Source: a virus
Taxonomy: Duplodnaviria > Caudoviricetes
Direction: 5' to 3' (one strand)
Virus record (IMG/VR): IMGVR_UViG_3300027764_000014
Span: 1-35,691 of that record
DNA length: 35,691 bases
Part shown: piece by piece, positions 1-16,289 of the stretch
Layout of the letters: each line of letters opens with the position of its first letter
Numbering within the stretch: position 1 is the stretch's first letter
Program-made: the position numbers and the translations under genes
The notes under the pieces: generated by a model
What the model was told of the DNA's origin: nothing
Databases searched by the model: none
The model's input: the letters and a program-made list of their open reading frames with translations, nothing else

Positions 1-621
1 TACTACAATGGAACTACATGGGTGCAAACTGCTCAAATTAGAGATGGGTCAAATAATACAAATAGGAGCATTTTAAGTCTTACTGATTTTGACAAACTTA
101 ATAAACCAGCAGGATTTTACCATTTTGGTTATCCAAATGGGGCAGTATTAGCAAATTATATTACTTATAATCTTTATTATTCAGGGGCTAATTTTCAAGG
201 TACAGGATTCGGATGGGTTAAAGTATTTGAATCTCCATACGGAGGAACTGCCACGACTAATTTTTTAGATTTAAGTTTGTCATTTAGTCAAATTGGATTC
301 CAAAGAAATGATGGTGCATTTTGGCAAACTGCGGGTTTTCCATTATATGCTTCATTTAACACAAGAAATGACAATGCTGTTGCTACAACTGGGACAAGAA
401 TAGGGTATCGAGTTTTTTTAGGATATGGCGGAGGTATGGGGATATATAATACAAATCAAAGTCCTTGCAATTGGTTTGATGGAACTGGAGCAGTTGGAGC
501 AGGATATGATGGAGGAAGTTGTGGTACATTTCCTAATGGATTAAAATGGGGAACTGGACAAACTGGTACGGCAGTTTATGCTAATATGTCTGGGACTTGG
601 CAGGCATGGATAAGATATTAA
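1..621 (+). CDS. Receptor-binding/tail-associated protein, 5'-truncated; paralog of 34703..35467
   Basis: Frame is open from base 1 (YYNGTTWVQTAQIRDG...). Shares WVKxFESPY, TTGTRIGYRVF and GYDGGSCGxFPNGLxWGTG with 34703..35467. Its N-terminus is probably the 35477..35691 segment or a close copy. Confidence 0.7.
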   Translation, partial: YYNGTTWVQTAQIRDGSNNTNRSILSLTDFDKLNKPAGFYHFGYPNGAVLANYITYNLYYSGANFQGTGFGWVKVFESPYGGTATTNFLDLSLSFSQIGFQRNDGAFWQTAGFPLYASFNTRNDNAVATTGTRIGYRVFLGYGGGMGIYNTNQSPCNWFDGTGAVGAGYDGGSCGTFPNGLKWGTGQTGTAVYANMSGTWQAWIRY

Positions 622-636
622 TTAAATAAATATAAA

Positions 637-1092
637 ATGGCTATTAAAATATTAACTCAAATTGGTACAGATTCGGGCATAACTTCAGAAGCTTATGTTC
701 GAATCCATGAATACAATATTTCTAAATCAGGAGCAATAAATTTGCAGTTAGAAATATATCTTTCTGAAGATTTAAAGAACCCTGTTAAAAACAAATCTAT
801 TGGTGATTCATTAGTATTAGATTTATCTCATAGCGAAATTGTAACTGAAACTAAAATTATATCAGCTACTAAAGGTGAGTTTTCTCCTATTCCACCAATT
901 AATCAGGAAGGATTAACTGTAATGCCAGAAGGTGTTAATGAGATTGAAGTAAAAGAAATTACTACTGAAACTTTAGTTAAAGTGGTTGATTTATCTGAAT
1001 TAGAAAATAAAACCATATTTGAGTTTGGGTATGACAAATTAAAGACATACTTAATCTCTATTTATGGTAAAGAAAATATTGTTGATTGTTAA
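637..1092 (+). CDS. Hypothetical tail-region protein (possible fibre chaperone)
   Basis: 151-aa ORF with tight spacing between fibre genes; function inferred from context only. Confidence 0.5.
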   Translation: MAIKILTQIGTDSGITSEAYVRIHEYNISKSGAINLQLEIYLSEDLKNPVKNKSIGDSLVLDLSHSEIVTETKIISATKGEFSPIPPINQEGLTVMPEGVNEIEVKEITTETLVKVVDLSELENKTIFEFGYDKLKTYLISIYGKENIVDC

Positions 1093-1104
1093 TAAATAAA
1101 AAGA

Positions 1105-2232
1105 ATGTCAAAAAATACTGATTTATCGGAACTAATTAATTATGTGAAAGGGATTTCATCAGGAAGATTGACATTCCCCTTTTATACTGCAACTACTTCT
1201 TTTACTGGAACAGTTGCAGGTTATCTTGCTTTTGATTCAAGTGGTAATATTTTAACTACTACTTCTCCTGCTACGCAATGGACAACAAGTGGTGCTAATA
1301 TTTATTATAACACAGGAAATGTTGGAATTAACAATGCTTCTCCAGCTTATAAACTTGATGTGGTTGGTGATATTAATATTACAGGTGCTTTCCGTATCAA
1401 TGGGACTTCTATAGGTACAGGTGGAGGCGGAGGAGTATCAGGTAGTGGAACAACTAACTACATTACAAAATGGAGTGGTTCAACTTCATTAACTAATAGT
1501 TTAATTTTTGACAATGGAACAGGTGTGTCAGTTGGTTCATCTAACCCATTATATAAATTTACTGTACAACCTAATACTAACTTAAACTTTGGTGTTGGTT
1601 TTGCTTCATTAAATTCTACTGATGATTCTATTTTTGTCAATGCGGTTAATAATTCTTATGGTGCAATTCCATTATTATTAAATGCTTCTCACTTAGGCTT
1701 CTATATTGGATTCTCTGAGGCTATGAGAATTACATCTTCTAAGATTGTTTTGGTAAATACTACAAGCGGAGTTAGTGGAGGAGGTATTCTTCAAGTTAAT
1801 GGAGATGTTAATATTACTGGTACATTTAAAGTAAATGGTACTGCGATTGGTACAGGTGGTGGTACAGGTAACATTAGTGGTAGTGGTAATTATGCTACTG
1901 TGCCTATATTTACTGCATCTCAGACAATTGGTAATTCATCTTTATTTGCTTCTCCATCGGGAGATTCGGGAGCTTATAGTGGAGCTAATGTTAATTGGCT
2001 TGGAGGTAATGGTTGTCAAATACAATTCTTAGGAGATAGCGAGTCGGGATACGCAAGGATAGCTATTTCTTCAAATAACTTGCCTTCAAATACAGGATTA
2101 AGATTAGAAGTTAGCAGAATTAGAACAACTGGTAAGCTTAATATTGGAGATACAAGTACAAGTGGTTTAATTGTTGGAGATTTATTTGTAGATGCTAATG
2201 GATTTGTTAAAAGGTCTACAAGTGCAACTTAA
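1105..2232 (+). CDS. Tail fibre/spike-like protein
   Basis: G/S/T-rich. Contains GNVGI...P..KLDV.G and EAMRITSS fibre motifs, an internal duplication (GDINITGAFRINGTSIGTGGG / GDVNITGTFKVNGTAIGTGGG) and a GVSGSGT..I.KW block shared with 31890..34565. Confidence 0.75.
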   Translation: MSKNTDLSELINYVKGISSGRLTFPFYTATTSFTGTVAGYLAFDSSGNILTTTSPATQWTTSGANIYYNTGNVGINNASPAYKLDVVGDINITGAFRINGTSIGTGGGGGVSGSGTTNYITKWSGSTSLTNSLIFDNGTGVSVGSSNPLYKFTVQPNTNLNFGVGFASLNSTDDSIFVNAVNNSYGAIPLLLNASHLGFYIGFSEAMRITSSKIVLVNTTSGVSGGGILQVNGDVNITGTFKVNGTAIGTGGGTGNISGSGNYATVPIFTASQTIGNSSLFASPSGDSGAYSGANVNWLGGNGCQIQFLGDSESGYARIAISSNNLPSNTGLRLEVSRIRTTGKLNIGDTSTSGLIVGDLFVDANGFVKRSTSAT

Positions 2233-2246
2233 TTCATAATTATTAT

Positions 2247-2254
2247 TATATTTG
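2247..2254 (+). promoter_or_regulatory. Bacteroidota sigma-70-type -7 element (TATATTTG)
   Basis: Intergenic match to TAnnTTTG upstream of 2286; -33 element unclear. Confidence 0.5.
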
Positions 2255-2285
2255 CTCATTCAAATACATAAACATCCAAAACAAA

Positions 2286-2681
2286 ATGAAAACTAACGCA
2301 GAGTTATTGACACTTGTACAATTCTTGAATGCCAATGTAGGCGAAGGAAAAACTAAAGGTCAAAAGAAATTAATTAAGATTGGAGAAAGAATCCAAAAGC
2401 AACTTGATGATTTTAACGAAAAGAAAGAAGAACTTCGTTTAGATAATGCTTCTGTTGATAAAGATGGTAACTTATTATTGAACGAAAAGAATGAGTATAA
2501 TTTTAATAAAGAAGGAGTTAAAAAGTTAAACTCTCAGTTAAAAGATTTATTACTAAGTGAAATTAGCTTTGAGCCAATTCCTGTTATTAATCCAGAAGGA
2601 TTAGAGCAATACGGATTCTTGAATGGTTGGGTTAGTGGTGTAGAGTTTATTAAAACTGGGATTAAAGAAGAAGAACTTTAA
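2286..2681 (+). CDS. Hypothetical helical protein (DUF1617-like)
   Basis: 131-aa charged coiled ORF with DKDGNLL motif, typical between tail and lysis genes. Confidence 0.5.
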   Translation: MKTNAELLTLVQFLNANVGEGKTKGQKKLIKIGERIQKQLDDFNEKKEELRLDNASVDKDGNLLLNEKNEYNFNKEGVKKLNSQLKDLLLSEISFEPIPVINPEGLEQYGFLNGWVSGVEFIKTGIKEEEL

Positions 2682-2703
2682 AATAGAATGTATTTAATTA
2701 GTA

Positions 2704-3036
2704 ATGGAGAATAATTTAGATAACATAATCAATCCACTAAATGCTATATGGACTATAATAGTTGGTATAGGGGCTTTTCTTACTGGAAGAAAAAAAGAAA
2801 AGATTGAGGTTAAAGGTAGTGAACTTGATAATGTAGATAAGGCGGTGAAAATTTGGCAAGACTTAGCAGAAACAATGACTTTAAAAGTTGAGAAACTAAC
2901 TGAGCAAGTCGAATTGCTTACAAAAGAAAATCAAGAGTTGCGTTCAACTATATCTCGTTTAGAGGATAAGTTAGACAAATTTGATGAAAATCGTAAAGTA
3001 AAAACAGTAAGAGTAAAACAACCAACAACTAAATAG
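2704..3036 (+). CDS. Holin/antiholin-like membrane protein (N-terminal TM plus coiled coil)
   Basis: Hydrophobic segment AIWTIIVGIGAFLTG followed by heptad coil; directly precedes the endolysin. Confidence 0.55.
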   Translation: MENNLDNIINPLNAIWTIIVGIGAFLTGRKKEKIEVKGSELDNVDKAVKIWQDLAETMTLKVEKLTEQVELLTKENQELRSTISRLEDKLDKFDENRKVKTVRVKQPTTK

Positions 3037-3062
3037 GCTACTTCGTGTAGCTTATTTTGTTT
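3031..3062 (+). terminator. Hairpin/intrinsic terminator before endolysin
   Basis: AAATAGGCTAC-TTCGT-GTAGCTTATTT followed by TGTTT. Confidence 0.55.
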
Positions 3063-3075
3063 AAACCCAAACCCA

Positions 3076-3525
3076 ATGGTAACATCAAAACAAGCATTAA
3101 AGAAGTATGGTGAACCGAGTGCAAGCAATCCGCACTTAGTTCTTTGGGATGTCCCAACAGAGTTAGAAATTGGAATCATTCCTAAACGCATCTATTGCAA
3201 TAAGGATATGATTGTGCCATTAGGCAATGCTTTTAAAAAGCTAATCTCAACAGGTTGTGTCAAAGAACTTAAAACCTGGGATGGATGCTTTAACATACGC
3301 AAGATGCGTGGTTTAACTTCAATGAGTTTACACTCTTGGGGTATAGCTATTGATATGAACGCATTTTGTAATCCACTTGGATTATCAAGGCAAGAAATTG
3401 TAAAAAAAGGAATGACACCATTTTCTGAGCAATTTTTAGATTGTTTTCGTTCAAGTGGTTTTGATTGCGGGGCTGATTGGAAATCTCGTCCTGATTTTAT
3501 GCACATGCAATTAGCAACAATATAG
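3076..3525 (+). CDS. Endolysin, peptidase M15 family (L-Ala-D-Glu peptidase-like)
   Basis: R..RG....SLHSWGIAID.N and W...D.MH.Q zinc-peptidase motifs. Confidence 0.9.
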   Translation: MVTSKQALKKYGEPSASNPHLVLWDVPTELEIGIIPKRIYCNKDMIVPLGNAFKKLISTGCVKELKTWDGCFNIRKMRGLTSMSLHSWGIAIDMNAFCNPLGLSRQEIVKKGMTPFSEQFLDCFRSSGFDCGADWKSRPDFMHMQLATI

Positions 3526-3573
3526 TGTTGCATATTCAATTTAAGTTTGTATATTTAACCAAACAAAATAAAT

Positions 3574-4089
3574 ATGTGGCATAAAATAGAAGAATCTAAT
3601 TACGAAGTTTCAAACTTGGGAGAGGTTAGAAACATTAATACTAAGCAAATTAAAAAATTGCACCCTGGTGGAACATCTGCATATTTAATGGTTCAGATTT
3701 ATTTAATAAATGGCAAAAGAAAGAATTATTTGGTTCATAGATTAATTGCCAAATATTTTATAGATAACCCATTTAATAAAGAGCAAGTAAATCACATAGA
3801 TGGCAATAAGCTAAATAATAATTTTGCTAATTTAGAATGGGTTACTCCTAAAGAAAATATGAAGCATGCTTTTGAATCTGGATTATATAAAAAATTTAAT
3901 AATCAGGTTTATAAAGGAAAGTTTGGTTCAGAACATAATCGTAGCATAAAAATAGAGTGCAATGGAATTGTTTATAATGGATATTCGGAAGCAAGTAGAT
4001 TAACAGGTATAAATGTTTCTACAATTCACAGAGCAATTAAATTTAACAGACCATGCAAAAAAATGCACTTCCAACTTGCAAAGATATGA
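3574..4089 (+). CDS. NUMOD4-HNH homing endonuclease, free-standing
   Basis: YEVSNLGEVRN (NUMOD4), VHRLIA..F, VNHIDGNKLNN...NLEWVT..EN..H and a C-terminal HTH-like segment. Confidence 0.9.
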   Translation: MWHKIEESNYEVSNLGEVRNINTKQIKKLHPGGTSAYLMVQIYLINGKRKNYLVHRLIAKYFIDNPFNKEQVNHIDGNKLNNNFANLEWVTPKENMKHAFESGLYKKFNNQVYKGKFGSEHNRSIKIECNGIVYNGYSEASRLTGINVSTIHRAIKFNRPCKKMHFQLAKI

Positions 4090-4535
4090 AACACTTAATA
4101 TTCATTGCGTTACTAATTGTAACGGTTTGCTCATGTAAGCCAACTAAGCAAATTACCGAGATAAAAGAAACCATTAAGGTTGATACTTTTACTCGTAATG
4201 TAGATAGATTCATTTATCGTTCTGTACACGATACTCTAACAATCCAAAATCCATGTGATTCTTTAGGTTTAAAGGACTTTTATTACAAAACTAACCTACC
4301 ACAAGGGAAGGTGATAATTCGTTCCTTAAATGGCAATATTCAAGCTACTATCAACATTGATTCAATTGTAAATGTGTATGAATCTAAGTATAAGTCAGCA
4401 CTATTAAGTAGTACGGATAGAACTATAAAGTTTGTACGCACAAATATTATCCCACAATGGGCATTAATGACAATCTTTATTGAAACACTTATTATCGGAT
4501 TGTATTTATACTTTCGATTAATGTTCCCTAAATAA
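4086..4535 (+). CDS. Lipoprotein with C-terminal TM; unimolecular spanin-like
   Basis: Start re-called at 4086 (ATGA overlap). MKHLIFIALLIVTVCSC gives a lipobox, and there is a C-terminal hydrophobic helix; lies in the lysis cassette. Confidence 0.65.
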   Translation: MKHLIFIALLIVTVCSCKPTKQITEIKETIKVDTFTRNVDRFIYRSVHDTLTIQNPCDSLGLKDFYYKTNLPQGKVIIRSLNGNIQATINIDSIVNVYESKYKSALLSSTDRTIKFVRTNIIPQWALMTIFIETLIIGLYLYFRLMFPK

Positions 4536-4540
4536 ACTTA

Positions 4541-5686
4541 ATGGAAAAGAAAAGCTATTCGCAAATAGTATTAGATGCTATTGCAATTTTTAGTAACAAT
4601 AATGTAACTAAGGCTGAGGCTTCAAGACAAGCATCTGAGGGAACTCATTACAATCCTGAAAACATTAGGAAGGGTATTGTAAAACACCAAGCAAAGAAGT
4701 CAAGAGAAGAAGCCCATGCTGGCTTAGTTTCTCATTGTGAAAGTCGTGGAATTGATGTTAATGATGTTTCACTTTATTGGGATAAGACTAAGGAATATTC
4801 AGTAAAAGTAAACCTTGACAGAAACCAAAAGACTTATGAGAATTTAAGAGATGAAATTATTGAGTCAATGGATGCTCACTCTCCTAAATACCCCAACATT
4901 GAAAGAGATTTCTTAGTTGATGGACATTTACTTGTGGTAGACCCAGCAGATATTCATATTGGTAAATTAGCTACTGCATTTGAAACAGGTGAAGACTATA
5001 ATTCACATATTGCAGTTAAAAGAGTTCACGAAGGTGTAGAAGGTATTTTACAAAAGGTAAAAGGATTTAACATTGACCAAATAATGTTGGTTATTGGTAA
5101 TGATATTCTCCATGTAGATTCACCTCGTAACACAACTACTTCTGGTACTAACCAAGATGTCTGCCAAATGTGGTATGATAACTTTTTAATGGCTAAACAA
5201 CTTTATGTTGAGGTTATTGAAAAACTTACAGGTGTAGCAGATGTTCATGTTGTATTCAATCCTTCTAATCATGATTATACTAATGGTTTCTTTTTGGCTG
5301 ATGCAATCAAGTCTTGGTTTAGACATTCTAACAATATCACATTTGATTGCTCAATCGCACATCGTAAATATTATAGATACTTTGAAAATCTTATTGGCAC
5401 TACGCATGGCGATGGTGCTAAACAGTCTGACTTAGGATTGTTAATGGCTGAGGAGGCTAAGAAGGATTGGGGAACTACTAAGCATAGATATTTTTACACC
5501 CACCATGTTCACCATAAGACATCAAAAGATTTAATCGGGATAACAATTGAATCTTTAAGAAGCCCAAGTGGTTCAGATTCATGGCATCACCGTAACGGTT
5601 ATGGTGTAGGAGGAGTTAAGGCTATTGAAGGTTTCTTACACTCAAAAGAGCATGGTCAGATATGTAGGATAACACATATTTTTTAA
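4541..5686 (+). CDS. Calcineurin-like metallophosphoesterase with N-terminal HTH-like region
   Basis: DxHxG (DIHIG), GND, SNHD, HGD and HHVHH metal-binding motifs in canonical order. Confidence 0.85.
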   Translation: MEKKSYSQIVLDAIAIFSNNNVTKAEASRQASEGTHYNPENIRKGIVKHQAKKSREEAHAGLVSHCESRGIDVNDVSLYWDKTKEYSVKVNLDRNQKTYENLRDEIIESMDAHSPKYPNIERDFLVDGHLLVVDPADIHIGKLATAFETGEDYNSHIAVKRVHEGVEGILQKVKGFNIDQIMLVIGNDILHVDSPRNTTTSGTNQDVCQMWYDNFLMAKQLYVEVIEKLTGVADVHVVFNPSNHDYTNGFFLADAIKSWFRHSNNITFDCSIAHRKYYRYFENLIGTTHGDGAKQSDLGLLMAEEAKKDWGTTKHRYFYTHHVHHKTSKDLIGITIESLRSPSGSDSWHHRNGYGVGGVKAIEGFLHSKEHGQICRITHIF

Positions 5687-5694
5687 TACCTTTG
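5687..5694 (+). promoter_or_regulatory. -7 promoter element (TACCTTTG) with no downstream ORF
   Basis: TAnnTTTG match immediately after the stop codon, about 40 nt before a terminator stem. Confidence 0.5.
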
Positions 5695-5698
5695 TTAC

Positions 5699-5770
5699 GC
5701 GTTCATCGTGTTTCATTGGGTGTTGTGGTTTGGTTAGCAAGGTCGGGGAATATCTCCGACTTTTGCTTTT
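5699..5770 (+). ncRNA. Candidate antisense sRNA-A (GU-rich seed with two CAU triplets plus terminator)
   Basis: Seed GCGTTCATCGTGTTTCATTGGGTGTTGTGGTTTGGTT is complementary to several start-codon regions. Terminator stem GTCGGGGA/TCTCCGAC plus U-tract. Confidence 0.6.
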
Positions 5771-5778
5771 ATAATGTA

Positions 5779-5820
5779 CTTGTTAGCATACCATAAGAAC
5801 TGCTAACAGGTCTTTTTTTT
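5779..5820 (+). terminator. Second intrinsic terminator of late operon
   Basis: CTTGTTAGCA...TGCTAACAGG followed by TC and T8. Confidence 0.7.
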
Positions 5821-5856
5821 AAACAAAAATACCCATCAACAAAGTCAATGGGTATT
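5821..5856 (-). terminator. Intrinsic terminator after dnaB
   Basis: Minus strand AATACCCATTGAC-TTT-GTTGATGGGTATT-TTTGTTT. Confidence 0.75.
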
Positions 5857-5879
5857 CTAATAAACACTATGAAATCAAA

Positions 5880-7235
5880 TTAAAATCCTTTTGATGTATA
5901 AGATGGGTTTAATTCCCTAATCTTGCTTGTTGCTACATCTATAAATAAATCAGCAGTTCTTGTATCCCCATCTCTATTCTTCATAAAGATGTACTCAATT
6001 ACATTATCAAAAACTACATTGTTATTGCCTTCCTCTTTAGCTTTCTCATACTTATAATAATCATCTCGGTATAAACCAATAACTACTGAAGCATCTTGTT
6101 CTATTTGTCCCGAAGAACGCAAGTCAGATAGCTTTGGTCTGTGAGATGTTCTACCTTCTGATTGGCGATTTAATTGTGCTGCACATAAGAAAGGAATGTT
6201 TAACTTCTTGGCTAATTGTTGAATCTTTTTGGAAACTGAGCCAACTACTGCCGTTTCATCATTGCTTCTAATAGAACTATCTGTTATAAGTTGTAAGTAA
6301 TCTACTACAACCATATCAATATTCTTTTCTCGAACAATCTTTTGTATTAAAGTGGATAGGTAATTTATATCTCGGTTTGCTCCATCATACCAAGTAATAG
6401 GTAACTTCTCAAGGTTAGTTACTGCTTTCTTTTGAATGTTGCTAAATTGATTAATATCTATTCGACCTGTTTTAATTTTAGAGTAAGGAGTTGAGTCATC
6501 TAATTGACCACTAATCATTCGGTAAATTAAGGATACAACAGGCATCTCTAAAGATAAGAATAGTACCTTCTTGTTCATCTCTCCTGCACATCTTGAATGC
6601 TCAAGTAAGCAAATGGTCTTTCCTTGCCCAGGTCGTGCTGCAAACAAGATAACATTACCCTTTAGCCAACCACCTGTAACATTGTCTAAGATATTGTATC
6701 CTGTTGGAACTCCCGATAAGCTACCATTAGTCATCACATCCCCGATATTTTCAACTGCACAACTTAAAGCAGACTTCATGTCCATAACTTCATTTGTGTC
6801 ATTTTGAATAATATCGGTAGATGTAACTTTATTAATCTTGTCAATAATTGAGAAATAATCTTCACCATTAACTAATGAATTATTAACTTCTCTGCTCATT
6901 GCAAGAATATCTCTTTTGCCTTTAAGTTCTGCTAAGTAGTAAATTACTTCTTGAGCATTCATTGGAGTTCTTGTTGTAGATGCCATCATAACATCTACCC
7001 AATCATTGCTTCCTTTTGATTTTAAGCGAATAATAATATCAGACTGAGTGAATGTACCTTTTTCAGAAAACAATTCAACACAAGTCAAATATACTGCCTT
7101 AGTTGTACTAAAGTGAAACACATCAGGATTGATTATCTTTTGAATGTCCTTTGTGTAATTTGGGTGGTTCATTAGAAGTGCTAAAATTTCTCTTTCAGCA
7201 TCTAAATCGGTAAATGCTACTTTATCTTGTTTCAT
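5880..7235 (-). CDS. dnaB: Replicative DNA helicase
   Basis: AARPGQGKT Walker A, FLSLEM, VVVDYLQL, QLNR, DLRSSGQIEQDA and KNRDG motifs. Confidence 0.95.
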   Translation of the reverse strand: MKQDKVAFTDLDAEREILALLMNHPNYTKDIQKIINPDVFHFSTTKAVYLTCVELFSEKGTFTQSDIIIRLKSKGSNDWVDVMMASTTRTPMNAQEVIYYLAELKGKRDILAMSREVNNSLVNGEDYFSIIDKINKVTSTDIIQNDTNEVMDMKSALSCAVENIGDVMTNGSLSGVPTGYNILDNVTGGWLKGNVILFAARPGQGKTICLLEHSRCAGEMNKKVLFLSLEMPVVSLIYRMISGQLDDSTPYSKIKTGRIDINQFSNIQKKAVTNLEKLPITWYDGANRDINYLSTLIQKIVREKNIDMVVVDYLQLITDSSIRSNDETAVVGSVSKKIQQLAKKLNIPFLCAAQLNRQSEGRTSHRPKLSDLRSSGQIEQDASVVIGLYRDDYYKYEKAKEEGNNNVVFDNVIEYIFMKNRDGDTRTADLFIDVATSKIRELNPSYTSKGF

Positions 7236-7251
7236 AGTGTGTTGTGTTTTA

Positions 7252-7935
7252 CTAAAATAAATCTAATTGTTTTGTTGGATAATCTTTTCCTAATAAAACA
7301 TCTCCCCATTGTTTTGCCATCGCATCAGCAATTCCTTTAAAAGTCTTGCTTCTTAAAGTCCTTCTTTCTGCTGGTGATTTTGCTTTTTGAAGTGCTTCAT
7401 AATACCATAATGCTTGCCTTTTTGTTTTACCTGTCTTTTTATCTTTCCATTCCATAAATTCTCCTTTTTCAACAATATTAGTATGAATTAGCTTTGGAAG
7501 ATTTTTTAACCATAAACAAGTAGACTTTGATGCTTTATCTCCAAAATGATATGGATGTACAATTTGGTCAGGCTTTCTAATTTTACTTGAAATTACAGAA
7601 ATTGGATTTTCAATTGCTATATGTTTAATATTTGAATCCATTAATTTTTGAACAAAAGCTAAACCATCATTTTGATTTTTTAACCTTTCCATATTAATTG
7701 AGCCATCTTTATTATATAGATGCCTTGCACCACTAACTGCTAAATAAGTGCAAGGTGGATGAGCAATCATCATATCCCAACCTTTATCAATTATTTCAAA
7801 TACATCTCCTTGATAATGCCATTGAGGTTCTCCTCCAGAACATGGTAACAAATCACAAGAATATGCTTCAAAACCTAATTTTCTAAAAGCCTTTGTAACT
7901 GCCTGACTTTCCTCACAAGCTATTAAAATTTTCAT
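7252..7935 (-). CDS. Orphan DNA cytosine-C5 methyltransferase-like protein
   Basis: ACEES SAM-binding start, HPPC catalytic motif, ENP, and RSKTF.GIA.AMA.QW; no cognate REase nearby. Confidence 0.8.
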   Translation of the reverse strand: MKILIACEESQAVTKAFRKLGFEAYSCDLLPCSGGEPQWHYQGDVFEIIDKGWDMMIAHPPCTYLAVSGARHLYNKDGSINMERLKNQNDGLAFVQKLMDSNIKHIAIENPISVISSKIRKPDQIVHPYHFGDKASKSTCLWLKNLPKLIHTNIVEKGEFMEWKDKKTGKTKRQALWYYEALQKAKSPAERRTLRSKTFKGIADAMAKQWGDVLLGKDYPTKQLDLF

Positions 7936-7937
7936 AA

Positions 7938-8414
7938 TTAAAACTTAAAAGGGTTCGAAGTTTGTGGTTTGATAATCATCTTTTGGATATATCCTTCATC
8001 TTCCCAAGTTCGTTGATTAAGATATGTTACAGGATGCTTTCTAAACTTAATATCAGGTGTTGATTTTAAATAGTGTGGCAAAGTTTCAAATATTTTCTCA
8101 ATATCCTTTATAGGTAGCTTTAAAAACTTTGTCTTTGCATCCTTAGTACCAATCTTTTTATCATACATCTCCCAGAACTTATTGAAATGCTCCTCCTTTT
8201 GATTGACCTCTTGAAGAATCTCTTGGGCACTAACTTTTGGAATTTGTGGTAATGCAATTGATTTATCAATGTGGTAAATTAATTCTAACCCTTCTGTTCC
8301 ACTTAACTTAGTTTCATTTAGTGAATCAAGTAATTCTTGGTCTTTAATTGCGTAGTGAAACTTGCTTAAAAGTTCTTGTAAGAAATCACCGAGTGCTAAT
8401 TGTTTTGTTTTCAT
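7938..8414 (-). CDS. Replication initiator/replisome-organiser-like protein
   Basis: Start re-called at 8414 (ACAACACA leader). C-terminal F..FW..Y.KK.G...A...F and HP.TYLNQ..WEDE motifs; close to dnaB. Confidence 0.7.
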   Translation of the reverse strand: MKTKQLALGDFLQELLSKFHYAIKDQELLDSLNETKLSGTEGLELIYHIDKSIALPQIPKVSAQEILQEVNQKEEHFNKFWEMYDKKIGTKDAKTKFLKLPIKDIEKIFETLPHYLKSTPDIKFRKHPVTYLNQRTWEDEGYIQKMIIKPQTSNPFKF

Positions 8415-8649
8415 TGTGTTGTTCGTTATACCAATCTTTAAATTTCTTAATTCGCATAAATGCAGCAAATTGTTCTCTGTTTTTCGAAAATTCCAATCTA
8501 TTAATTGAAACTAATAATGATTCATGAGAATTGTGAATTATAATATTATCATAACATTTAAAGTCAATCATTGGCTCTTTTGTTTTAATAAAATCAGTAG
8601 CCCAATCAACTGCCATTTGGTAGTATTCATCTTGCTTAGATTCCTCCAT
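8386..8649 (-). CDS. Hypothetical protein
   Basis: 87-aa ORF in the overlapping gene chain. Confidence 0.6.
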   Translation of the reverse strand: MEESKQDEYYQMAVDWATDFIKTKEPMIDFKCYDNIIIHNSHESLLVSINRLEFSKNREQFAAFMRIKKFKDWYNEQHNENKTISTR

Positions 8650-8908
8650 TTTCTTTGAGTTTAATTCTATCCATTTTAGCTTTTAAGTATTGCCTTTTAC
8701 GCATTTCTGTTGCATCATAAATTTTCATGTAGTTCGACATTGACCTAAGTAATAATTTGCTATTACACTCACAATTAAAACTAATTGATGCACTATTGCC
8801 AACCTTAAAGAATCTTTCCGCAAGGTTTGTTTTTGAATAATCATAATTGCAAACTGGGCAATTAAGTTCATCTTGGGTTAGTGTCTTTCCTCTAATTCTC
8901 ATTTGCAT
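8636..8908 (-). CDS. Small zinc-finger-like protein
   Basis: CPVC...CEC cysteine pairs. Confidence 0.55.
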   Translation of the reverse strand: MQMRIRGKTLTQDELNCPVCNYDYSKTNLAERFFKVGNSASISFNCECNSKLLLRSMSNYMKIYDATEMRKRQYLKAKMDRIKLKENGGI

Positions 8909-9117
8909 TTATGTTTTATTTTAAATGTAAAGTGCTTGCAACCATAAAAGACATAAGAAGAATCAAAATCATCATGAAAAGTTTCTTGAAATTCATCTCG
9001 TTCATATACCAAGGGTGTTTGCGTGTTCATCATCTGAGATTTTGAACTCCATGACAAAATAATTGTGAGCAATAACACTAATGGGATTGCAATTAGGAAT
9101 TTTCTTAGCTTCTTCAT
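8899..9117 (-). CDS. Small secreted/membrane protein
   Basis: Basic N-terminus plus hydrophobic stretch; ATGA overlap with the upstream ORF. Confidence 0.55.
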   Translation of the reverse strand: MKKLRKFLIAIPLVLLLTIILSWSSKSQMMNTQTPLVYERDEFQETFHDDFDSSYVFYGCKHFTFKIKHKCK

Positions 9118-9296
9118 ATTCTTCCAGCATTTTGATAACTACTTCCCGATTGTCTTTTAATGCTTGTTCGTGTTGATTTAGGTTCTTTGCCATAAAGTTT
9201 TTTGTAGTTTAATTTAAGTTGATAATCTAAATTTATACCCCATTCGGTATAAGTTAAACCAAGTTGATTTGTTTTGAATTTGTGTTGTGCGTTCAT
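9114..9296 (-). CDS. Hypothetical protein
   Basis: 60-aa ORF starting 1 nt after the exonuclease stop. Confidence 0.55.
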   Translation of the reverse strand: MNAQHKFKTNQLGLTYTEWGINLDYQLKLNYKKLYGKEPKSTRTSIKRQSGSSYQNAGRI

Positions 9297-9297
9297 T

Positions 9298-10038
9298 TTA
9301 AAATAGATAAGAGTTAATGTAATATTGATTAATGTCCATGTAAGAGTTTACCCCGAAAAAGTTGTTATAAACCTCAACTCCTTTAGCAACCTTAGTCCAA
9401 CCATTCTCTAAAAACTCATCTGAGCATTGAAAGAATCCTAAACGATTTGTTCCTTTTTCGATAACAATAAATGCCATCTTTTTACCAAATAATTGCTGAT
9501 AAATTGAAGCTTGAGAATCGTAATTATACTTCTTAGCTGAATACTTAAAATCATCCAACGAAGTTGTTGTCTTTAAGTCATAAATAACATCTCCATTAAT
9601 TACATCTGCTTTACCTTTGAATGGTAAGTCCATTATTACTCCAGTAGTAGGAACTTCATATTTACAACCATTATCCCAAACTAATTTAGATAACTCACGA
9701 TTGTTTCTCAAAGCTTTAACCATCCAATCTACTTCTTCAGCCTCCTTAGTCAAAAGCATAAAGTCTAAACTTCTTTCTTTGCAAGCATCCTTGTATAAGT
9801 TGGTAGTTCTTGTAGAAGCATCAACTAAAGGGAAATCTTTTAATTTATGAGGCTCTAAGCAAGCAGTATGAAAGTAATTCCCTTGTAACATTGCCAATGT
9901 CTTTTCAGTTGGCACTCCAAACATTTTAGGATTTCTTAATAAAACTCCAATGTCTGAATTAGATAAATAGTTACGACCTACTCCATTGTAGTATTCGTTG
10001 TCATCTTTAAGTGTTTCAATTATTTCTGGTGCGTTCAT
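9298..10038 (-). CDS. PD-(D/E)XK exonuclease, RecE/ExoVIII-like (DUF3799-type)
   Basis: LS.S, G..FH...LEP, KGKAD...IYDLKTT, Y..QA..Y and FIVIEK motifs. Confidence 0.85.
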   Translation of the reverse strand: MNAPEIIETLKDDNEYYNGVGRNYLSNSDIGVLLRNPKMFGVPTEKTLAMLQGNYFHTACLEPHKLKDFPLVDASTRTTNLYKDACKERSLDFMLLTKEAEEVDWMVKALRNNRELSKLVWDNGCKYEVPTTGVIMDLPFKGKADVINGDVIYDLKTTTSLDDFKYSAKKYNYDSQASIYQQLFGKKMAFIVIEKGTNRLGFFQCSDEFLENGWTKVAKGVEVYNNFFGVNSYMDINQYYINSYLF

Positions 10039-10043
10039 TTGGT

Positions 10044-10241
10044 TTATCTTTTAAAAGTTACTTGATATTTGGCTTTAAAGTAATCTCTAACATCTCCACT
10101 TGGGCTTACATAATCAAAGTCATCTGGGTAAATATCATTGACCATAAACTCAAGAAGTTGAAATATTTGCTCCCAATGAGCATTAGAAAGAATCTCTTGT
10201 TGTTCTAACCACTTTGGGTCATTTGGGATTATACCATTCAT
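10044..10241 (-). CDS. Hypothetical protein
   Basis: 65-aa ORF in the operon chain. Confidence 0.55.
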   Translation of the reverse strand: MNGIIPNDPKWLEQQEILSNAHWEQIFQLLEFMVNDIYPDDFDYVSPSGDVRDYFKAKYQVTFKR

Positions 10242-10440
10242 TAGCGATGCGTTTTAAATATTCTTCTACTTGTGGGTCATTAATGTTATTGTAGGCATGA
10301 GATTGAACGATTCCTATCGTGTATTCTCTACCCCTGTAAGGAAGTTTTTTATCTTCATTTAATTGTCTTGCAGTTTCCTGGAACAATTCAGAATAACTTC
10401 TTCCTCTTGGAATTGGTAGTTTTTCTTTTGATTTATTCAT
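10219..10440 (-). CDS. Hypothetical protein (possible DNA-binding)
   Basis: 73 aa; TARQLNE..LP.RG..YT resembles a recombinase-type HTH segment. Confidence 0.5.
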   Translation of the reverse strand: MNKSKEKLPIPRGRSYSELFQETARQLNEDKKLPYRGREYTIGIVQSHAYNNINDPQVEEYLKRIANEWYNPK

Positions 10441-10718
10441 AATACTTTAAATGCTAAAATGTTATTGATTGGAATACACATTTGCTTTACAAGTTTTGGT
10501 AACATTTCTCTTTTACCTTTACTAATGTGTTCCTCCATGATTGAGAAGTTTAGGAAAGGTTCGGGGTGGTTTACTATAACCATGTTCCCCGAATCACTAA
10601 CTCCTAAAATTTCAGATTCTAAATCTTCTTCTAAGTTTCCAAATTTGAAAATGAATCTTGCTTTATAGCCAATACTGCGTTCAATAGTTTTGACTAATTT
10701 ATTTGCGTTGCGTGTCAT
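10437..10718 (-). CDS. Hypothetical protein
   Basis: 93 aa; CACAACACACA leader. Confidence 0.6.
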   Translation of the reverse strand: MTRNANKLVKTIERSIGYKARFIFKFGNLEEDLESEILGVSDSGNMVIVNHPEPFLNFSIMEEHISKGKREMLPKLVKQMCIPINNILAFKVL

Positions 10719-10736
10719 TGTGTGTTGTGATTAAAC

Positions 10737-10931
10737 TTAGTTTAAAGAATCAATCGTTTGATTAAATGCAATTAATTGAATAACCTCAGAGGTTTTAAGT
10801 ACGCAAGTACCTTCATTTAATCCTTCTTGAGTAATTGAATTTTGACTTAAATAATCAATTTCTTCAACATCAATCCATGTTCTTATAATAGCATCATCTT
10901 TTCTTGTTGTAATCTTTACAAATTTTCTCAT
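10737..10931 (-). CDS. Hypothetical protein
   Basis: 64-aa ORF filling the gap. Confidence 0.55.
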   Translation of the reverse strand: MRKFVKITTRKDDAIIRTWIDVEEIDYLSQNSITQEGLNEGTCVLKTSEVIQLIAFNQTIDSLN

Positions 10932-10955
10932 TGTCTTTATTATTTAAAATGTGAA

Positions 10956-11597
10956 TTAAAAAGGTAATGGGTCGTTTTCTTCTACTTTGTCTAACTTAAA
11001 TACTTCTTGCTTTGGTGAATCCATTGAGAATTTGGATTTGTATTCAGGAGTTGAACTAATCTTATCAGCCAACCACTCAGGTAGTGTCATAAACAAGTCT
11101 TGATTCCATGAATCGTAAGCTAATACTCTTGTAGGATTAATTTGCTCAGGGCATTGCAATCCCTTTGGGATAGGAGTGATACCTGTAATGTTTGCGTAAG
11201 TCTTTGTGCCATCAGCGGAAGCTTTATGTACAATGTTTAACATACAAGGTGCACCAACTAATTTAGAGATGTCAAAGTTTGCTGCCTCTTGGTCAGTAAA
11301 TGCTTTACCTCTCCATGATTCTAACATCTTACGAAGTGTAGACTTCTCGTTAAATGATAAGGTAAAGTCCTTAGAGATAACAAAAGGTTTAGCTTCTTCT
11401 CCTTCTTTAAATACCGCAGTTTCTAAAGGTAATTCGAAGTCTACCATTACTTTGTGTAGTTTCTTCTTTTCTCCCATGTACTCTTGCTCTACTGTACCGA
11501 TTTGAATCATACCGTAGCATCTTGCTACATGATTCCCTGCTGGTACTACTTTGCGTTCAAGGTTTCCACCTCCATTTGATTTAGCGAAAATTGCCAT
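10956..11597 (-). CDS. SSB-like phage replication protein
   Basis: P.G.HVARC, S..EKS.LRK.LESWRG, GAPCML motifs and an acidic tail ending DPLPF (SSB-type tail). Confidence 0.7.
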   Translation of the reverse strand: MAIFAKSNGGGNLERKVVPAGNHVARCYGMIQIGTVEQEYMGEKKKLHKVMVDFELPLETAVFKEGEEAKPFVISKDFTLSFNEKSTLRKMLESWRGKAFTDQEAANFDISKLVGAPCMLNIVHKASADGTKTYANITGITPIPKGLQCPEQINPTRVLAYDSWNQDLFMTLPEWLADKISSTPEYKSKFSMDSPKQEVFKLDKVEENDPLPF

Positions 11598-11622
11598 TGT
11601 GTTAATTGTTTAAGTTTAAAAT

Positions 11623-11868
11623 TTAAGAAATTGTAATATTGATTTTTAATTCTTGATTGTTAAAATCCCATTGGTTAAAATCTTGATGATACTTAGATAT
11701 AAAACCTTTATTTTCAAGGGCTGATAACTTATCAAAAAGTTTGTCTGAATAATGCCCTTGGATTGCAACTGATTGAGTTGTTTTCCAAAATGATACAATG
11801 TAGAAATCATCTAATTCCAAGCCTAAATTGGCTAAATCTGATTCGATAGTGTTAATTTGCTTTTTCAT
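11623..11868 (-). CDS. Hypothetical protein
   Basis: 81 aa; first gene after the promoter at 11897-11927. Confidence 0.6.
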   Translation of the reverse strand: MKKQINTIESDLANLGLELDDFYIVSFWKTTQSVAIQGHYSDKLFDKLSALENKGFISKYHQDFNQWDFNNQELKINITIS

Positions 11869-11896
11869 ATTTTTTTTGTTGTTGTTATTTGTTGAA

Positions 11897-11927
11897 CAAT
11901 ATTAGTAAACAATTACTTAGTAACAAA
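11897..11927 (-). promoter_or_regulatory. Leftward Bacteroidota-type promoter
   Basis: Minus strand TTTG-N19-TAATATTG. Confidence 0.65.
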
Positions 11928-11959
11928 ATAAATATTAAAAAATATTTAAAAATTAGTGA

Positions 11960-11997
11960 AAAAAAATAAAAAAGGGCTCTAAATATGCCAAGCCCTT
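11960..11997 (-). terminator. Intrinsic terminator
   Basis: AAGGGCT...AGCCCTT stem plus long U-tract on the minus strand, overlapping the stop of 11979..12341. Confidence 0.7.
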
Positions 11998-12341
11998 CTT
12001 TTTTGTTGCAAATAATTTCCTTTTTTCAACTCTTTAATTTCTTCTTCTTGGGATAAAATTACCTTGTTAAGATTCTCAATGATTCTAACTTTTACATCAA
12101 GTTCTTCTTTTAGCTTAAAATGCTCTGCTATTAGGTCATCCCAAGAGTTGTATAAACTTTCAACATCACCCTTTAATCTTTTAAGGTACAAAGCCCCATC
12201 AAGCATTTCTTCGTATGCGTGTTGAATCCAATCAACTTCATCTAAGTCTTCTCTATCAAGAGTATTATTATACTTCTTAATGCCAACCTGAGAACGATTA
12301 TGCAAATCTTCTCTTACTGATTCTACTATGCTATCTTCCAT
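11979..12341 (-). CDS. All-alpha NTP-pyrophosphatase (MazG-like) family protein
   Basis: R...G.KKY...L.R.DL...DW..H..EE..D...Y motif followed by coiled coil. Confidence 0.5.
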   Translation of the reverse strand: MEDSIVESVREDLHNRSQVGIKKYNNTLDREDLDEVDWIQHAYEEMLDGALYLKRLKGDVESLYNSWDDLIAEHFKLKEELDVKVRIIENLNKVILSQEEEIKELKKGNYLQQKRRAWHI

Positions 12342-12699
12342 TATAATTATTTAAGTCTATGTTATACTCTTGTAGCAACTTATTCATTCTATCATTTAAC
12401 TCTACTTTCTTATCTTCTTCCATTAAGTCCATCTCCAGACCAACATTGAAAAAGAACTCCATTACAAAAGATGCGTTAATAAATTGGTCAAGAACATTAT
12501 TCATATCTACTCCACCATTTTGCTTTGATTCAAAGATGTGGTTAATAGACTTCTCTAATTCACCTTTTAATTGGTTAGTTAGGTATTTAACTTTCTTAAC
12601 ATTGTGAGAGGAATTTGACCACCTATCTTCGATAAAGTCAGTCATGAAATTGCAAAGTGAGTAATAGGTAAGAAATTTGTGTGATTCTTTTTGTGTCAT
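12331..12699 (-). CDS. Hypothetical protein
   Basis: 122-aa ORF in the chain. Confidence 0.6.
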   Translation of the reverse strand: MTQKESHKFLTYYSLCNFMTDFIEDRWSNSSHNVKKVKYLTNQLKGELEKSINHIFESKQNGGVDMNNVLDQFINASFVMEFFFNVGLEMDLMEEDKKVELNDRMNKLLQEYNIDLNNYNGR

Positions 12700-12806
12700 T
12701 TTGATTTTAGGTTAAAAAGTTGTTTAAAATACTCAACTGGAATAAAAACTATTGAGATAAATACATCTACCAATAGCCAATACATTTCTTTTAATTTAGT
12801 TTTCAT
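12696..12806 (-). CDS. Small membrane protein (36 aa, not in ORF track)
   Basis: MKTKLKEMYWLLVDVFISIVFIPVEYFKQLFNLKSK; AACCAAACACACA leader; ATGA overlap with the next gene. Confidence 0.6.
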   Translation of the reverse strand: MKTKLKEMYWLLVDVFISIVFIPVEYFKQLFNLKSK

Positions 12807-12824
12807 TGTGTGTTTGGTTTAGTG

Positions 12825-13175
12825 TTAAATAATATAATCTACTACTTCAATCGTAAATTCAATTCTGGGATTTTCTTTGTCTAATCCTTTAAACAAAAAT
12901 AATTCTGCAACCTTGTTATCATTCTCAAAAGCCTCAACTTTTTGTAGCAAGTCTAATACTGCTTTAGTAACTCCATCTAAATCAGATTTTCGATTTGGAT
13001 AATAAACCTTTAAAATAATTTTGAGGTTTCCTTCTATCTTAGCCCCTTTATACACTTGGCATTGCTCAATGAATGAAGATTCATAATCTTTGAGTGCCTT
13101 AGTCTTATAAACAAACCTACCACTAAAACGATATGAGTTAGATTTGCTTGGGACTGTTCCGTAGATTACTTCCAT
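12825..13175 (-). CDS. rusA: Holliday junction resolvase, RusA family
   Basis: PSKSN, DLDG..K...D.L......NDN.V and ENPRIE motifs. Confidence 0.85.
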   Translation of the reverse strand: MEVIYGTVPSKSNSYRFSGRFVYKTKALKDYESSFIEQCQVYKGAKIEGNLKIILKVYYPNRKSDLDGVTKAVLDLLQKVEAFENDNKVAELFLFKGLDKENPRIEFTIEVVDYII

Positions 13176-13303
13176 CTAATGCCAAAGCTTAGTGAGAATA
13201 TAACCCATGATAAGTGCATTGAAGCACTCTTTCTGTATTTAAACAAAGTAAAACAAGGCAAAACTTCAAGCCTGTTGTGAGATACAAATAGTCTTATTTT
13301 CAT
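13166..13303 (-). CDS. Small hypothetical protein (45 aa, not in ORF track)
   Basis: MKIRLFVSHNRLEVLPCFTL...FGIRWK; fills the gap exactly. Confidence 0.5.
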   Translation of the reverse strand: MKIRLFVSHNRLEVLPCFTLFKYRKSASMHLSWVIFSLSFGIRWK

Positions 13304-13304
13304 A

Positions 13305-13481
13305 TTATAAATTGTCTAATTCATCCATTACTTCCATCCAGAAATCTGAGGTATGAATATCTTCGTAATTAATTACTTTATCTACTGCAAACATCGCCAT
13401 TTGAACTGCTAACTTTGGAGTTATATCATAATTGTTAATCAAATCCTCCAGTAGTTCTTTTGTCATTCTTTGTGGTGTCAT
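13305..13481 (-). CDS. Small helical protein (58 aa, not in ORF track), paralog of 13478..13657
   Basis: MTPQRMTKELLED...AVDKVI...FWMEVMDELDNL; ATGA overlap. Confidence 0.6.
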   Translation of the reverse strand: MTPQRMTKELLEDLINNYDITPKLAVQMAMFAVDKVINYEDIHTSDFWMEVMDELDNL

Positions 13482-13657
13482 AGCTTTTGTATTTCTTTTT
13501 TAACTTGATTCCAATATGGTAATGCTGAATCTAATGTGTTTAATTTTATTTCATTTACTATCAAATCAGCTATTTCTTTAACTTCATCTAAATGTATTAT
13601 AGAAGTCTTAAACATTATGTTATGGGTAATTTGCATTGCGTGTTCTTTGGGTGTCAT
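13478..13657 (-). CDS. Small helical protein (MTPKE...YW..VK.EI.KL type)
   Basis: Start re-called at 13657 (ATGA overlap). Confidence 0.6.
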   Translation of the reverse strand: MTPKEHAMQITHNIMFKTSIIHLDEVKEIADLIVNEIKLNTLDSALPYWNQVKKEIQKL

Positions 13658-13794
13658 AAGTCGCAACATTTAAGTAATATGATAATTGAACAAATTGATA
13701 TTATCCAATATGCAATAGCCACACATTTGTGGTTTATTTCATCTAATTCTTTTTTCATTATTTCAGATTTATAATTTTCAAAAAAGTGCCTCAT
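13654..13794 (-). CDS. Small membrane protein (46 aa, not in ORF track)
   Basis: MRHFFENYKSEIMKKELDEINHKCVAIAYWIISICSIIILLKCCDL. Confidence 0.5.
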   Translation of the reverse strand: MRHFFENYKSEIMKKELDEINHKCVAIAYWIISICSIIILLKCCDL

Positions 13795-13820
13795 TTTTTA
13801 AATAGGAAAAAATAATTTTA

Positions 13821-13900
13821 GAAAAAAGAGGTGAAAAATAATTCCACCCCTTTAAATAATCACCTTTAACCTATCTATATGAAAAACAATCTACTACTAA
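13821..13900 (-). ncRNA. Candidate antisense sRNA-B (3' UTR of RHH gene: seed plus terminator)
   Basis: Minus strand TGTTTTTCATATAGATAGGTTAAAGG then terminator AAAGGGGTGGAA...TTTCACCTCTTTTTT. Seed is complementary to early-gene start regions. Confidence 0.6.
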
Positions 13901-14089
13901 TTAAATTGTGGAATTTTTGTCCATTAAATAGACCTTAATAAAGTCCTTGAACATTCCTTGCCAACCTATGCCAAATCTCTCATCTACTTCCTTCTTTAAT
14001 GCGGTTGGGATTCTAACTGAAATTACTGATGTTGGTTCACCTTGTGGGCGACCAGCTTTCTTTGGATTTTCTACTGTTTTAATATTCAT
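13901..14089 (-). CDS. Ribbon-helix-helix (CopG/Arc-like) regulator
   Basis: Start re-called at 14089. KAGRP then VISVRIP beta-ribbon and two helices. Confidence 0.7.
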   Translation of the reverse strand: MNIKTVENPKKAGRPQGEPTSVISVRIPTALKKEVDERFGIGWQGMFKDFIKVYLMDKNSTI

Positions 14090-14114
14090 TTTTTTCTTGT
14101 TGTGATTTCTTGTA

Positions 14115-14147
14115 CAAATGTAAACATTTATTATTAATAATTGCAAA
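14115..14147 (-). promoter_or_regulatory. Leftward Bacteroidota-type promoter
   Basis: Minus strand TTTG-N21-TACATTTG (consensus). Confidence 0.75.
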
Positions 14148-14153
14148 CATTAA

Positions 14154-14282
14154 TTAAAATAAAATTTTATAAATTAAAAAAGTGATTAAAATATTTAGTC
14201 CAACTATAATCCACAAAAGTATTCCAACCAATTTTAGAATTTTTTCGGAAAATTTCCTGGGACTATCAGCTTTTTTGCTCAT
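14154..14282 (-). CDS. Possible small membrane protein (42 aa)
   Basis: C-terminal hydrophobic helix; start uncertain (14282 or 14396). Confidence 0.35.
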   Translation of the reverse strand: MSKKADSPRKFSEKILKLVGILLWIIVGLNILITFLIYKILF

Positions 14283-14328
14283 ATAGGCTTGGGGCACTTT
14301 TTCCGCATTTCCTTGGCATCGCGCACCC

Positions 14329-14351
14329 TTATTTAGAATTAATCTAAATAA
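14329..14351. promoter_or_regulatory. 23-bp palindrome, Fur-box-like
   Basis: TTATTTAGA-ATTAA-TCTAAATAA with perfect arms; seven related copies at 16351-17399. Confidence 0.65.
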
Positions 14352-14640
14352 ACTACTTTTAAAATTGCTTTTGTGGGTATTCATTTTGTTTCTCATTGGT
14401 ATTAATGTTTAAATTTGTTTTAAGGTACTATATCTTAATTCTAAGGCACTTTTAATAGGTAATTAATACAATCACCTTATAAGCTATAAAAGTAGCTTAA
14501 AATCAAAGTATTAAAGTATTAAGGCAATAAGGTTTTACAGGCTATTAATAAGCCTAATTAAATACCTGGTTAATTAGCCTTTCTTTTGCCCTGTATTCAA
14601 TCAAATTGCTTTGGTTAATACATTGGTAGGCTATTAAATA

Positions 14641-14730
14641 AACAAAGGGCTAAAAAGCCCTATAAACAACAAAAGCCCCAAAAGGGCTTAATTAAATTAA
14701 AGTCTATAAAAAAAGGGCTAAAAAGCCCTA
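14641..14730 (-). terminator. Three tandem intrinsic terminators ending the early cassette
   Basis: AGGGCT/AGCCCT (14646-61), AAGCCC/GGGCTT (14673-89) and AGGGCT/AGCCCT (14714-29), each followed by U-rich sequence on the minus strand. Confidence 0.7.
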
Positions 14731-14740
14731 ATTTTAATTA

Positions 14741-14968
14741 TCAAGAAAAGCAGTCTAAATATTTATATTCATTGGTATTTGTATTCCAGATAGTTAATTC
14801 TATCCTTTTGCCTTTGTTTCTAAATTGGTAGTCTAAACAGTCTAAAAATTTACTCTTAATTTCTTTTATACTTGAATAGCCAAAATACCTTTGCTTTTCT
14901 ATTACTTCACCTTTATACCTGGCTAAAATTACTATTTGGTCGCTGGTGTTTATTCTATATCTTTTCAT
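14741..14968 (-). CDS. Early hypothetical protein (basic)
   Basis: 75-aa ORF, last gene of the early cassette. Confidence 0.6.
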   Translation of the reverse strand: MKRYRINTSDQIVILARYKGEVIEKQRYFGYSSIKEIKSKFLDCLDYQFRNKGKRIELTIWNTNTNEYKYLDCFS

Positions 14969-14972
14969 GGTG

Positions 14973-15566
14973 TTATTTGTTTTCTGTTTCTAAAATTTCA
15001 ATAAAATTACCTATCCAAATATTGTCTAAAATAAAATAACTCATATTATTTGAGTCAATTCCACTTATTGCCTCGTTTTGACAAATAAAAGCCAAAATTG
15101 AACCTAAATAATGTCCATTATTAGAAAAATCTTGAAAATTATTAGTATATGTTATCCAATCACATACCTGATTTGAATAGCTTGAAAAAAAACCTGATTT
15201 GTTAGAATAGTTATCGTATATATATTCCCTAAAATTTTCAAAGTTATTATGTATATACCAGCAAATTTTTTTAGAATCTATTTCAATTTTACAATTAATT
15301 GAATCAGTTGAAAAATTATAATATTTGGGGCTTATTAATTCTTGGAACTCAACAGATAAAACCCCAAAATTTTTTAATTCTTTTTCTATAAAATTGCAAG
15401 CATAAAAACTGCATTCTTTTTGCCATGATTCAAAGTCAAAATTTATTTGCTCATAGATTAAATTTTCTTCATTTAAAAAATCATTAATTTCAAAATCTCC
15501 ATCTATTAAGGAATTATAAAAACCTGGAAAAATTGGTAGGTATGTTTCGATTATTTGCGTTTTCAT
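14973..15566 (-). CDS. Early acidic hypothetical protein (F.GFY / SP..YNF.TD / SGF.S.Y motif type)
   Basis: 197 aa, D/E- and aromatic-rich; motif pattern recalled from uncharacterised early phage proteins. Confidence 0.6.
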   Translation of the reverse strand: MKTQIIETYLPIFPGFYNSLIDGDFEINDFLNEENLIYEQINFDFESWQKECSFYACNFIEKELKNFGVLSVEFQELISPKYYNFSTDSINCKIEIDSKKICWYIHNNFENFREYIYDNYSNKSGFFSSYSNQVCDWITYTNNFQDFSNNGHYLGSILAFICQNEAISGIDSNNMSYFILDNIWIGNFIEILETENK

Positions 15567-15594
15567 TGGATTAATTATTTAAGGTTAAAAATTA

Positions 15595-15753: not shown

Positions 15754-15778
15754 AATGTTTTTTTTTAAGGTTAAAAAT

Positions 15779-16099: not shown

Positions 16100-16126
16100 A
16101 TAGATTGTATTTAAAAGGTTAAAAAA

Positions 16127-16261: not shown

Positions 16262-16289
16262 TTTGTTATTGTTTATGTTAAATGATATG

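Follow-up and report, generated by a model that had tools for sequence, protein, structure and literature searches.

A candidate gene for a trans-acting RNA of about 70 nt between convergent phage operons, with predicted pairing to the phage's own gene starts

The window analyzed here, by which we mean the whole stretch of 35,691 nucleotides, is a phage record of 35.7 kb with an estimated completeness of 97%. Its + and - strand gene blocks meet convergently at 5687-5880, and this junction holds two compact units, element A on the + strand (5687-5770) and element B on the - strand. The features relevant to the analysis are as follows.

Late block, + strand: head, tail and lysis genes
Early/replication block, - strand: dnaB at its end
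4541-5686, + strand: phosphoesterase/"DNA repair exonuclease"-like gene (phrog_704, E 1e-70), last gene of the + operon
5687-5694, + strand: Bacteroidota-type -7 promoter box TACCTTTG, immediately 3' of the stop of the phosphoesterase-like gene
5697-5738, + strand: pairing tract, weakly structured, with UUCAU at 5712-5716
5735-5770, + strand: intrinsic terminator hairpin and U tract, doubling as the end of the late + operon
5775-5822, + strand: additional hairpin, not always present, whose 12-nt loop is widely conserved, followed by a T tract; a separate motif
5822-5884, - strand: element B, an anti-start tract and terminator directly 3' of the dnaB stop
7221-7250, - strand: dnaB start, secondary predicted site (25/30 ungapped)
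10437-10718, - strand: gene for a 93-aa protein, adjoining the exonuclease VIII module
10704-10741, - strand: best predicted site, running from the leader through the AUG to codon 5 of the 93-aa gene
12696-12824, - strand: gene for a 36-aa hydrophobic (membrane) peptide, start at 12806, with a secondary predicted site

Since boxes of the form TAnnTTTG, the Bacteroidota promoter consensus according to PMC7366714, precede the genes and the leaders are A-rich, we infer from the sequence that the host is a member of the Bacteroidota; a genome search for the host returned a single match, a Bacteroidia MAG with a dnaB identity of 31%. Neither a tyrosine integrase (PF00589) nor a resolvase (PF00239) was found in any of the five genomes tested, and because of this the phage group is probably lytic. 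The phosphoesterase-like gene, which is the usual but not obligatory neighbor of element A, has its best phage match in a Synechococcus phage (61.6%) and is shared with the cultured Muminvirus record NC_048841.1 (54.7%), in which our detector did not find the UUCAU unit. Elsewhere in the window, about 1.3 kb without long ORFs (16262-17560) separates the divergent early and late blocks, carries repeated short inverted motifs and is likely an origin/promoter region. Short AGGGCT/AGCCCT hairpins cluster in a noncoding stretch of the early region (14560-14730), and small hairpins, each preceded by a TAnnTTTG-like box, lie 3' of the major head gene (23551-23645) and of the tail tube gene (26035-26096).

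A reading made from the sequence alone had described element A as a -7 box leading into an ORF-less stretch and a terminator. The layout was confirmed: TACCTTTG starts at 5687, and the terminator-like hairpin with its T tract, at 5739-5763, is the top such site within positions 1-18000. This box has the housekeeping-sigma form; no conserved TTTG at -33 was seen upstream of it by eye, and PMC7366714 likewise reports none for Flavobacterium. By analogy with the FopS-10 oligos, the 5' end of the RNA would lie close to 5699, for a length of about 70 nt (about 72). Folding of the pairing tract does not exceed that of shuffles (z -0.19), and the + strand folds to -23.3 kcal/mol versus -12.7 for the - strand, with the G:U pairs of the terminator favoring the former. 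The description as ORF-less holds for the + strand and fails for the - strand, where a 24-codon frame begins within the element; this frame is missing in 3 of 8 genomes checked, and the reading of it as a mini-ORF was rejected for that reason. An Rfam search, proposed along with the sequence-only reading, returned no family match on 5687-5770; the whole window gave no match at gathering level, and 5600-5950 only chance-level matches. The box-plus-terminator unit occurs once in the window, as does its DNA match, and there are no multicopy paralogues.

Comparison of the syntenic region in related phages, likewise proposed earlier, showed that element A is conserved: six type-A relatives match the window in it at 96-100% identity and a seventh at 88%, compared with 54-72% at the four-fold sites of the neighboring gene. 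In the best 80 of 192 loci fetched through the phosphoesterase-like gene, the promoter box lies 3' of the stop in 51, and the full layout of box, UUCAU or UUCGU, and hairpin with T tract follows the stop in 50 (two of the 30 remaining loci are incomplete sequence). Where the upstream gene has been swapped, the unit persists behind the other gene, box included. The stem pairs of the terminator vary by type with pairing preserved, as judged from a loop-centered table, which was preferred because the MAFFT alignment shifted hairpin registers. The sense strand folds better in 25/25 distinct UUCAU/UUCGU units (a few of them from other positions), and TTCAT occurs in 35 of 59 distinct box-plus-terminator units, which are related, against a mean of 3.9 and a maximum of 8 in shuffles. 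These data bear on the view that the locus is nothing but a terminator next to a relic gene start or minus-strand mini-ORF, devoid of pairing function. A terminator at the junction of two convergent operons is no surprise, and the minus strand does read as a leader plus ATG; nevertheless, we regard this view as very improbable, since conservation of the tract far exceeds that of silent sites, three of the genomes checked have no minus-strand ATG, the G:U pairs assign the hairpin to the + strand, and the box travels with the tract.

The putative RNA was scanned genome-wide for pairing sites. The best non-self site is the 10718 start, that of the 93-aa gene, with a duplex of -35.5 kcal/mol that ranks first among 80 candidate starts and was reached by 0/60 dinucleotide shuffles and 0/60 shuffles that keep the TCAT core. 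Scored without G:U pairs, it was reached by 0/100 plain and 3/100 core-keeping shuffles, and with opening energies included it still comes first (-22.0; next, -18.4). Within this duplex, codons 2-5 of the gene lie opposite the 5' portion of the tract. The 12806 start of the 36-aa peptide gene is third in the window by energy and ranks 2-4 in 6/6 type-A genomes, and an AC-rich leader is common to the starts at 10718, 7235 (dnaB) and 12806.

This ranking differs from that of the sequence-only reading, which had proposed a late shut-off of replication-gene translation. Its alignments were reproduced: 5709-5731 matches dnaB 7228-7250 at 20/23, 5713-5730 matches 10715-10732 at 16/18, GCGTTCAT matches both 10031-10038 (exonuclease) and 9289-9296 at 8/8, and the descriptions of the stretches at 12801-12820 and 8409-8422 (initiator) agree by eye. 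The match at 10718 was already on that list, by coordinates alone; the order of the targets had to be revised. In favor of a late switch acting mainly on dnaB, the initiator and the exonuclease are the position of element A at the end of the late operon, the identity score of the dnaB start (rank 1 in the window, reached by 0/100 plain and 2/100 core-keeping shuffles) and a dnaB rank of 4-12 among 80-92 starts in 6/6 type-A genomes. Several lines of evidence, however, make such a switch quite unlikely: (i) by energy dnaB is only 5/80 and the main site is 10718; none of the five mismatches over the 30 nt of the dnaB duplex is a G:U pair, and its energy without G:U is reached by 4/100 plain and as many as 30/100 core-keeping shuffles; (ii) outside type A, the dnaB rank is mostly 11-77, with one fragment at rank 3; (iii) the initiator (51/80), the exonuclease (19/80) and the 9296 start (37/80) do not rise above background; (iv) GCGTTCAT, proposed as a second seed, is not kept next to near-identical RNAs, being present at the exonuclease start in 2/6 and at the 9296-family start in 1/6 type-A genomes, and in the one relative where the exonuclease match persists, that CAT is gone from the RNA; and (v) dnaB has its own element B.

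Co-variation between the RNA and the gene starts of its own phage supports pairing as such. The dnaB-adjacent phages, which are related, contain six RNA types (A-F), and pairing was scored against each phage's own gene starts in 23 records, two of which (G028 and G032) had no element called and supplied targets only; starts came from a simple gene caller that missed the type-D target, which was then added by hand. In the 6x6 matrix with one record per type, the row minimum lies on the diagonal in 6/6 rows, and none of the 720 permutations surpasses the diagonal (none of 120 if type D is omitted). The observed best was reached by 0/60 shuffles for each of types A, B, C, D, E and F. The best target is the 93-aa gene in 6/6 type-A genomes and, with a differing start sequence, the 93-aa family in type F (3/3 genomes and L397; in L396 it comes second, hence first in 4/5 type-F records overall). 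Own pairs of types A and F with the 93-aa family score -32 to -41, as opposed to -14 to -19 for the type-F RNA on type-A 93-aa starts and -20 to -28 for type-A RNAs on type-F 93-aa starts. Transition mismatches are G:U compatible in 16 cases versus 3, the pairs being nonindependent. Type B fits best a 71-aa gene, where the record contains it (an atlas search gave no lead on this target), type D a 52-aa gene whose relation to the 9296 family was judged by eye, and type E, whose RNA has no CAU, a tail-region gene. Because the target family switches in this way, with the 93-aa gene at rank 7-49 in types B, C and E, the 93-aa gene is not a universal target. It should be added that own-genome fit would be expected as well if the RNA had arisen by inverted duplication of a local leader.

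The type-C RNA fits best a 42-aa hydrophobic peptide gene in 4/4 records, at a site that places a G opposite the G of the AUG. At this gene position types A and F likewise encode a peptide, the sizes over the three types being 34-42 aa. One might hence consider an antitoxin-like RNA, the key job of which is to restrain the hydrophobic peptide gene; the peptide ranks in type A, given above, and the first rank of the counterpart of comparable size in type C agree with this. We consider it very unlikely, as in type F the peptide at this position falls to rank 62-69 and the peptides are only weakly homologous (13-24% identity). A further possibility is that element A mimics the bacterial RNA FopS and is directed at the host, repressing host mRNAs or soaking up an RbpB-type protein, with the phage matches as a by-product. 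The layout and UUCAU core are as in FopS and GibS, and in eight more distant genomes of other layout the elements are nearer to the FopS 5' end and the own-genome fit is weak (reached by shuffles in 0-4/25; diagonal unclear). This explanation, too, appears improbable, given that the six types each fit their own phage best and that pairing into codons 2-5 would be superfluous for a host-directed RNA.

We therefore return to pairing with the phage's own starts. The claim of an sRNA that pairs with start codons is backed by conservation, strand asymmetry and co-variation with own gene starts, and, since the RNA changes in step with these start regions, it is predicted to lower their translation. 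On the sequence evidence, element A is probably the gene for a trans-acting RNA of about 70 nt whose predicted leader/AUG pairing would lower translation, chiefly of the 93-aa gene and, more weakly, of dnaB and the 36-aa peptide gene. Host RNA polymerase would start about 5 nt past the box, and late read-through would carry the pairing tract too; the housekeeping box would permit early synthesis, to which late read-through would add more. A duplex of 25-38 nt would cover the A-rich leader, the substitute of Bacteroidota ribosomes for a Shine-Dalgarno site, and would block initiation by analogy with FopS (PMC11697453) and GibS (PMC7366714). The net effect would be to limit the output of a few early/replication-operon genes, with dnaB likely damped also by element B, either in cis or as a processed fragment.

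As a candidate regulator of dnaB, element B appears, from its pairing, preferable to the element A RNA. It pairs best with the start of dnaB itself (rank 1/80 in the window), and across seven types, chosen from 29 distinct pairs, the diagonal of element B against dnaB starts is the best of 5040 permutations, with the row minimum on the diagonal in 6/7 types. In the stretch between the two elements, the hairpin with the 12-nt loop possibly represents, as a guess, a protein-bound conditional terminator. Its 18-letter pattern occurs in an estimated 190 or so viral stretches, in 97 distinct contexts with varying stems, most of which precede a T tract or adjoin tRNA genes; for 20 such loci, Rfam gave only the neighboring tRNAs. 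In L005 and L008, a gene that is HNH-like by eye is inserted between elements A and B, both of which are intact; it has its own box and a structured leader and lies about 30-130 nt 3' of the element A terminator.

The 93-aa gene occurs in all clades examined except for a short type-D record. The protein has no sequence match in Pfam, PHROGs or PDB and does not match the LSM/Hfq profile; a profile search gave 7 matches, 3 of them full-length relatives, and on these data the relatives seem confined to the phage group. Its structural model (pLDDT 91) consists of a helix and a five-stranded barrel with a long L4. Foldseek places Sm/LSm proteins first, with E 0.013 or weaker (all E>0.001), an atlas search gave low-score leads to Sm-like DUFs, and VIA-align placed Hfq rows at Z 7.5-7.9 with an rmsd of 1.8-3.0 over 57-63 residues; equal scores were obtained for GerQ, designed SH3 barrels, WYL domains and RimP domains (Z<=8.3). 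The residues that we take to be the Sm/Hfq RNA-binding signature are not kept, as read by eye from the alignment. The model thus points to an Sm-like fold, which is common also to nonchaperones, and a role as RNA chaperone would be a guess from that fold. Homologues of Hfq and ProQ have not been found in Bacteroidota, according to the accounts in PMC7366714 and PMC13750123, so that the 93-aa protein, if it binds RNA, would be a phage-borne Sm-fold chaperone in such a phylum.

It is tempting to combine these elements into a complete riboregulation kit of the phage, comprising its own Sm/Hfq-like chaperone, sRNA feedback on the translation of that chaperone, a self-closing dnaB 3' UTR and lineage-tuned pairing; we hold this to be speculative and rather unlikely, and, if true, it would serve a host phylum without a known Hfq. 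According to the review PMC12197685, the main text of which does not mention Bacteroides-group phages, little has been described of phage RNAs with trans targets among the genes of the same phage, and our search of the literature found no trans-acting RNA directed at own genes in Bacteroidota phages and no phage Hfq-like partner. New in this study are the own-genome co-variation test, an Sm-fold target common to two RNA types, and element B. Since RNA and target have changed jointly in this phage group, it provides natural pairs in which the rules of start-codon blocking in bacteria without Shine-Dalgarno sequences can be tested by swapping RNAs and leaders between types.

Among known systems, the c4 RNA of phages P1 and P7 resembles element A in being a phage RNA that acts on the ribosome-binding region of a phage mRNA, where c4 blocks translation, with a specificity that differs between related phages (PMC12197685). 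It differs in that it controls an antirepressor in temperate phages, whereas in the element A group neither tyrosine integrase nor resolvase was found in the five genomes tested, and the element has no Rfam match. Element B, in turn, is comparable to the 5'-3' UTR pairing of icaR and to OppZ and CarZ, in which a 3' UTR acts on its own initiation region (PMC7821165), and differs in being directed against the AUG and leader instead of the Shine-Dalgarno sequence, in being phage-borne and in its co-variation over seven types. GibS (RF04182) shares with element A an extended 5' seed of 30-50 nt across target start codons (PMC7366714); unlike element A, it is described by a 142-position model, is about 145 nt long, has two seeds (R1 and R2) and acts on host metabolic targets, and its model gave no match on element A. 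The closest parallel is FopS (RF04319) of Bacteroides thetaiotaomicron, one member of which, FopS-10, blocks translation initiation at the start codon, while another, FopS-14, derives from a 3' UTR, and one copy is reported in a Caudovirales phage (PMC11697453). FopS and element A have in common the housekeeping-sigma TAnnTTTG box, a single-stranded 5' part, the terminator, a U-run followed by CAU, a length of about 70 nt and start-codon pairing, which for element A is predicted. On the other hand, the FopS model does not match element A at E<=10, its cut-off was exceeded in 0/5 genomes, and the 5' end of FopS-10 shares with element A only the U-run and CAU core. Moreover, FopS binds RbpB, represses host susC mRNAs and is multicopy, element A is single-copy in the phage, and the predicted targets of element A, unlike those of FopS, are the phage's own genes, for which the tract has been retuned in each lineage. 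Although it scores as neither family, element A, by this analogy, likely acts as FopS and GibS do.
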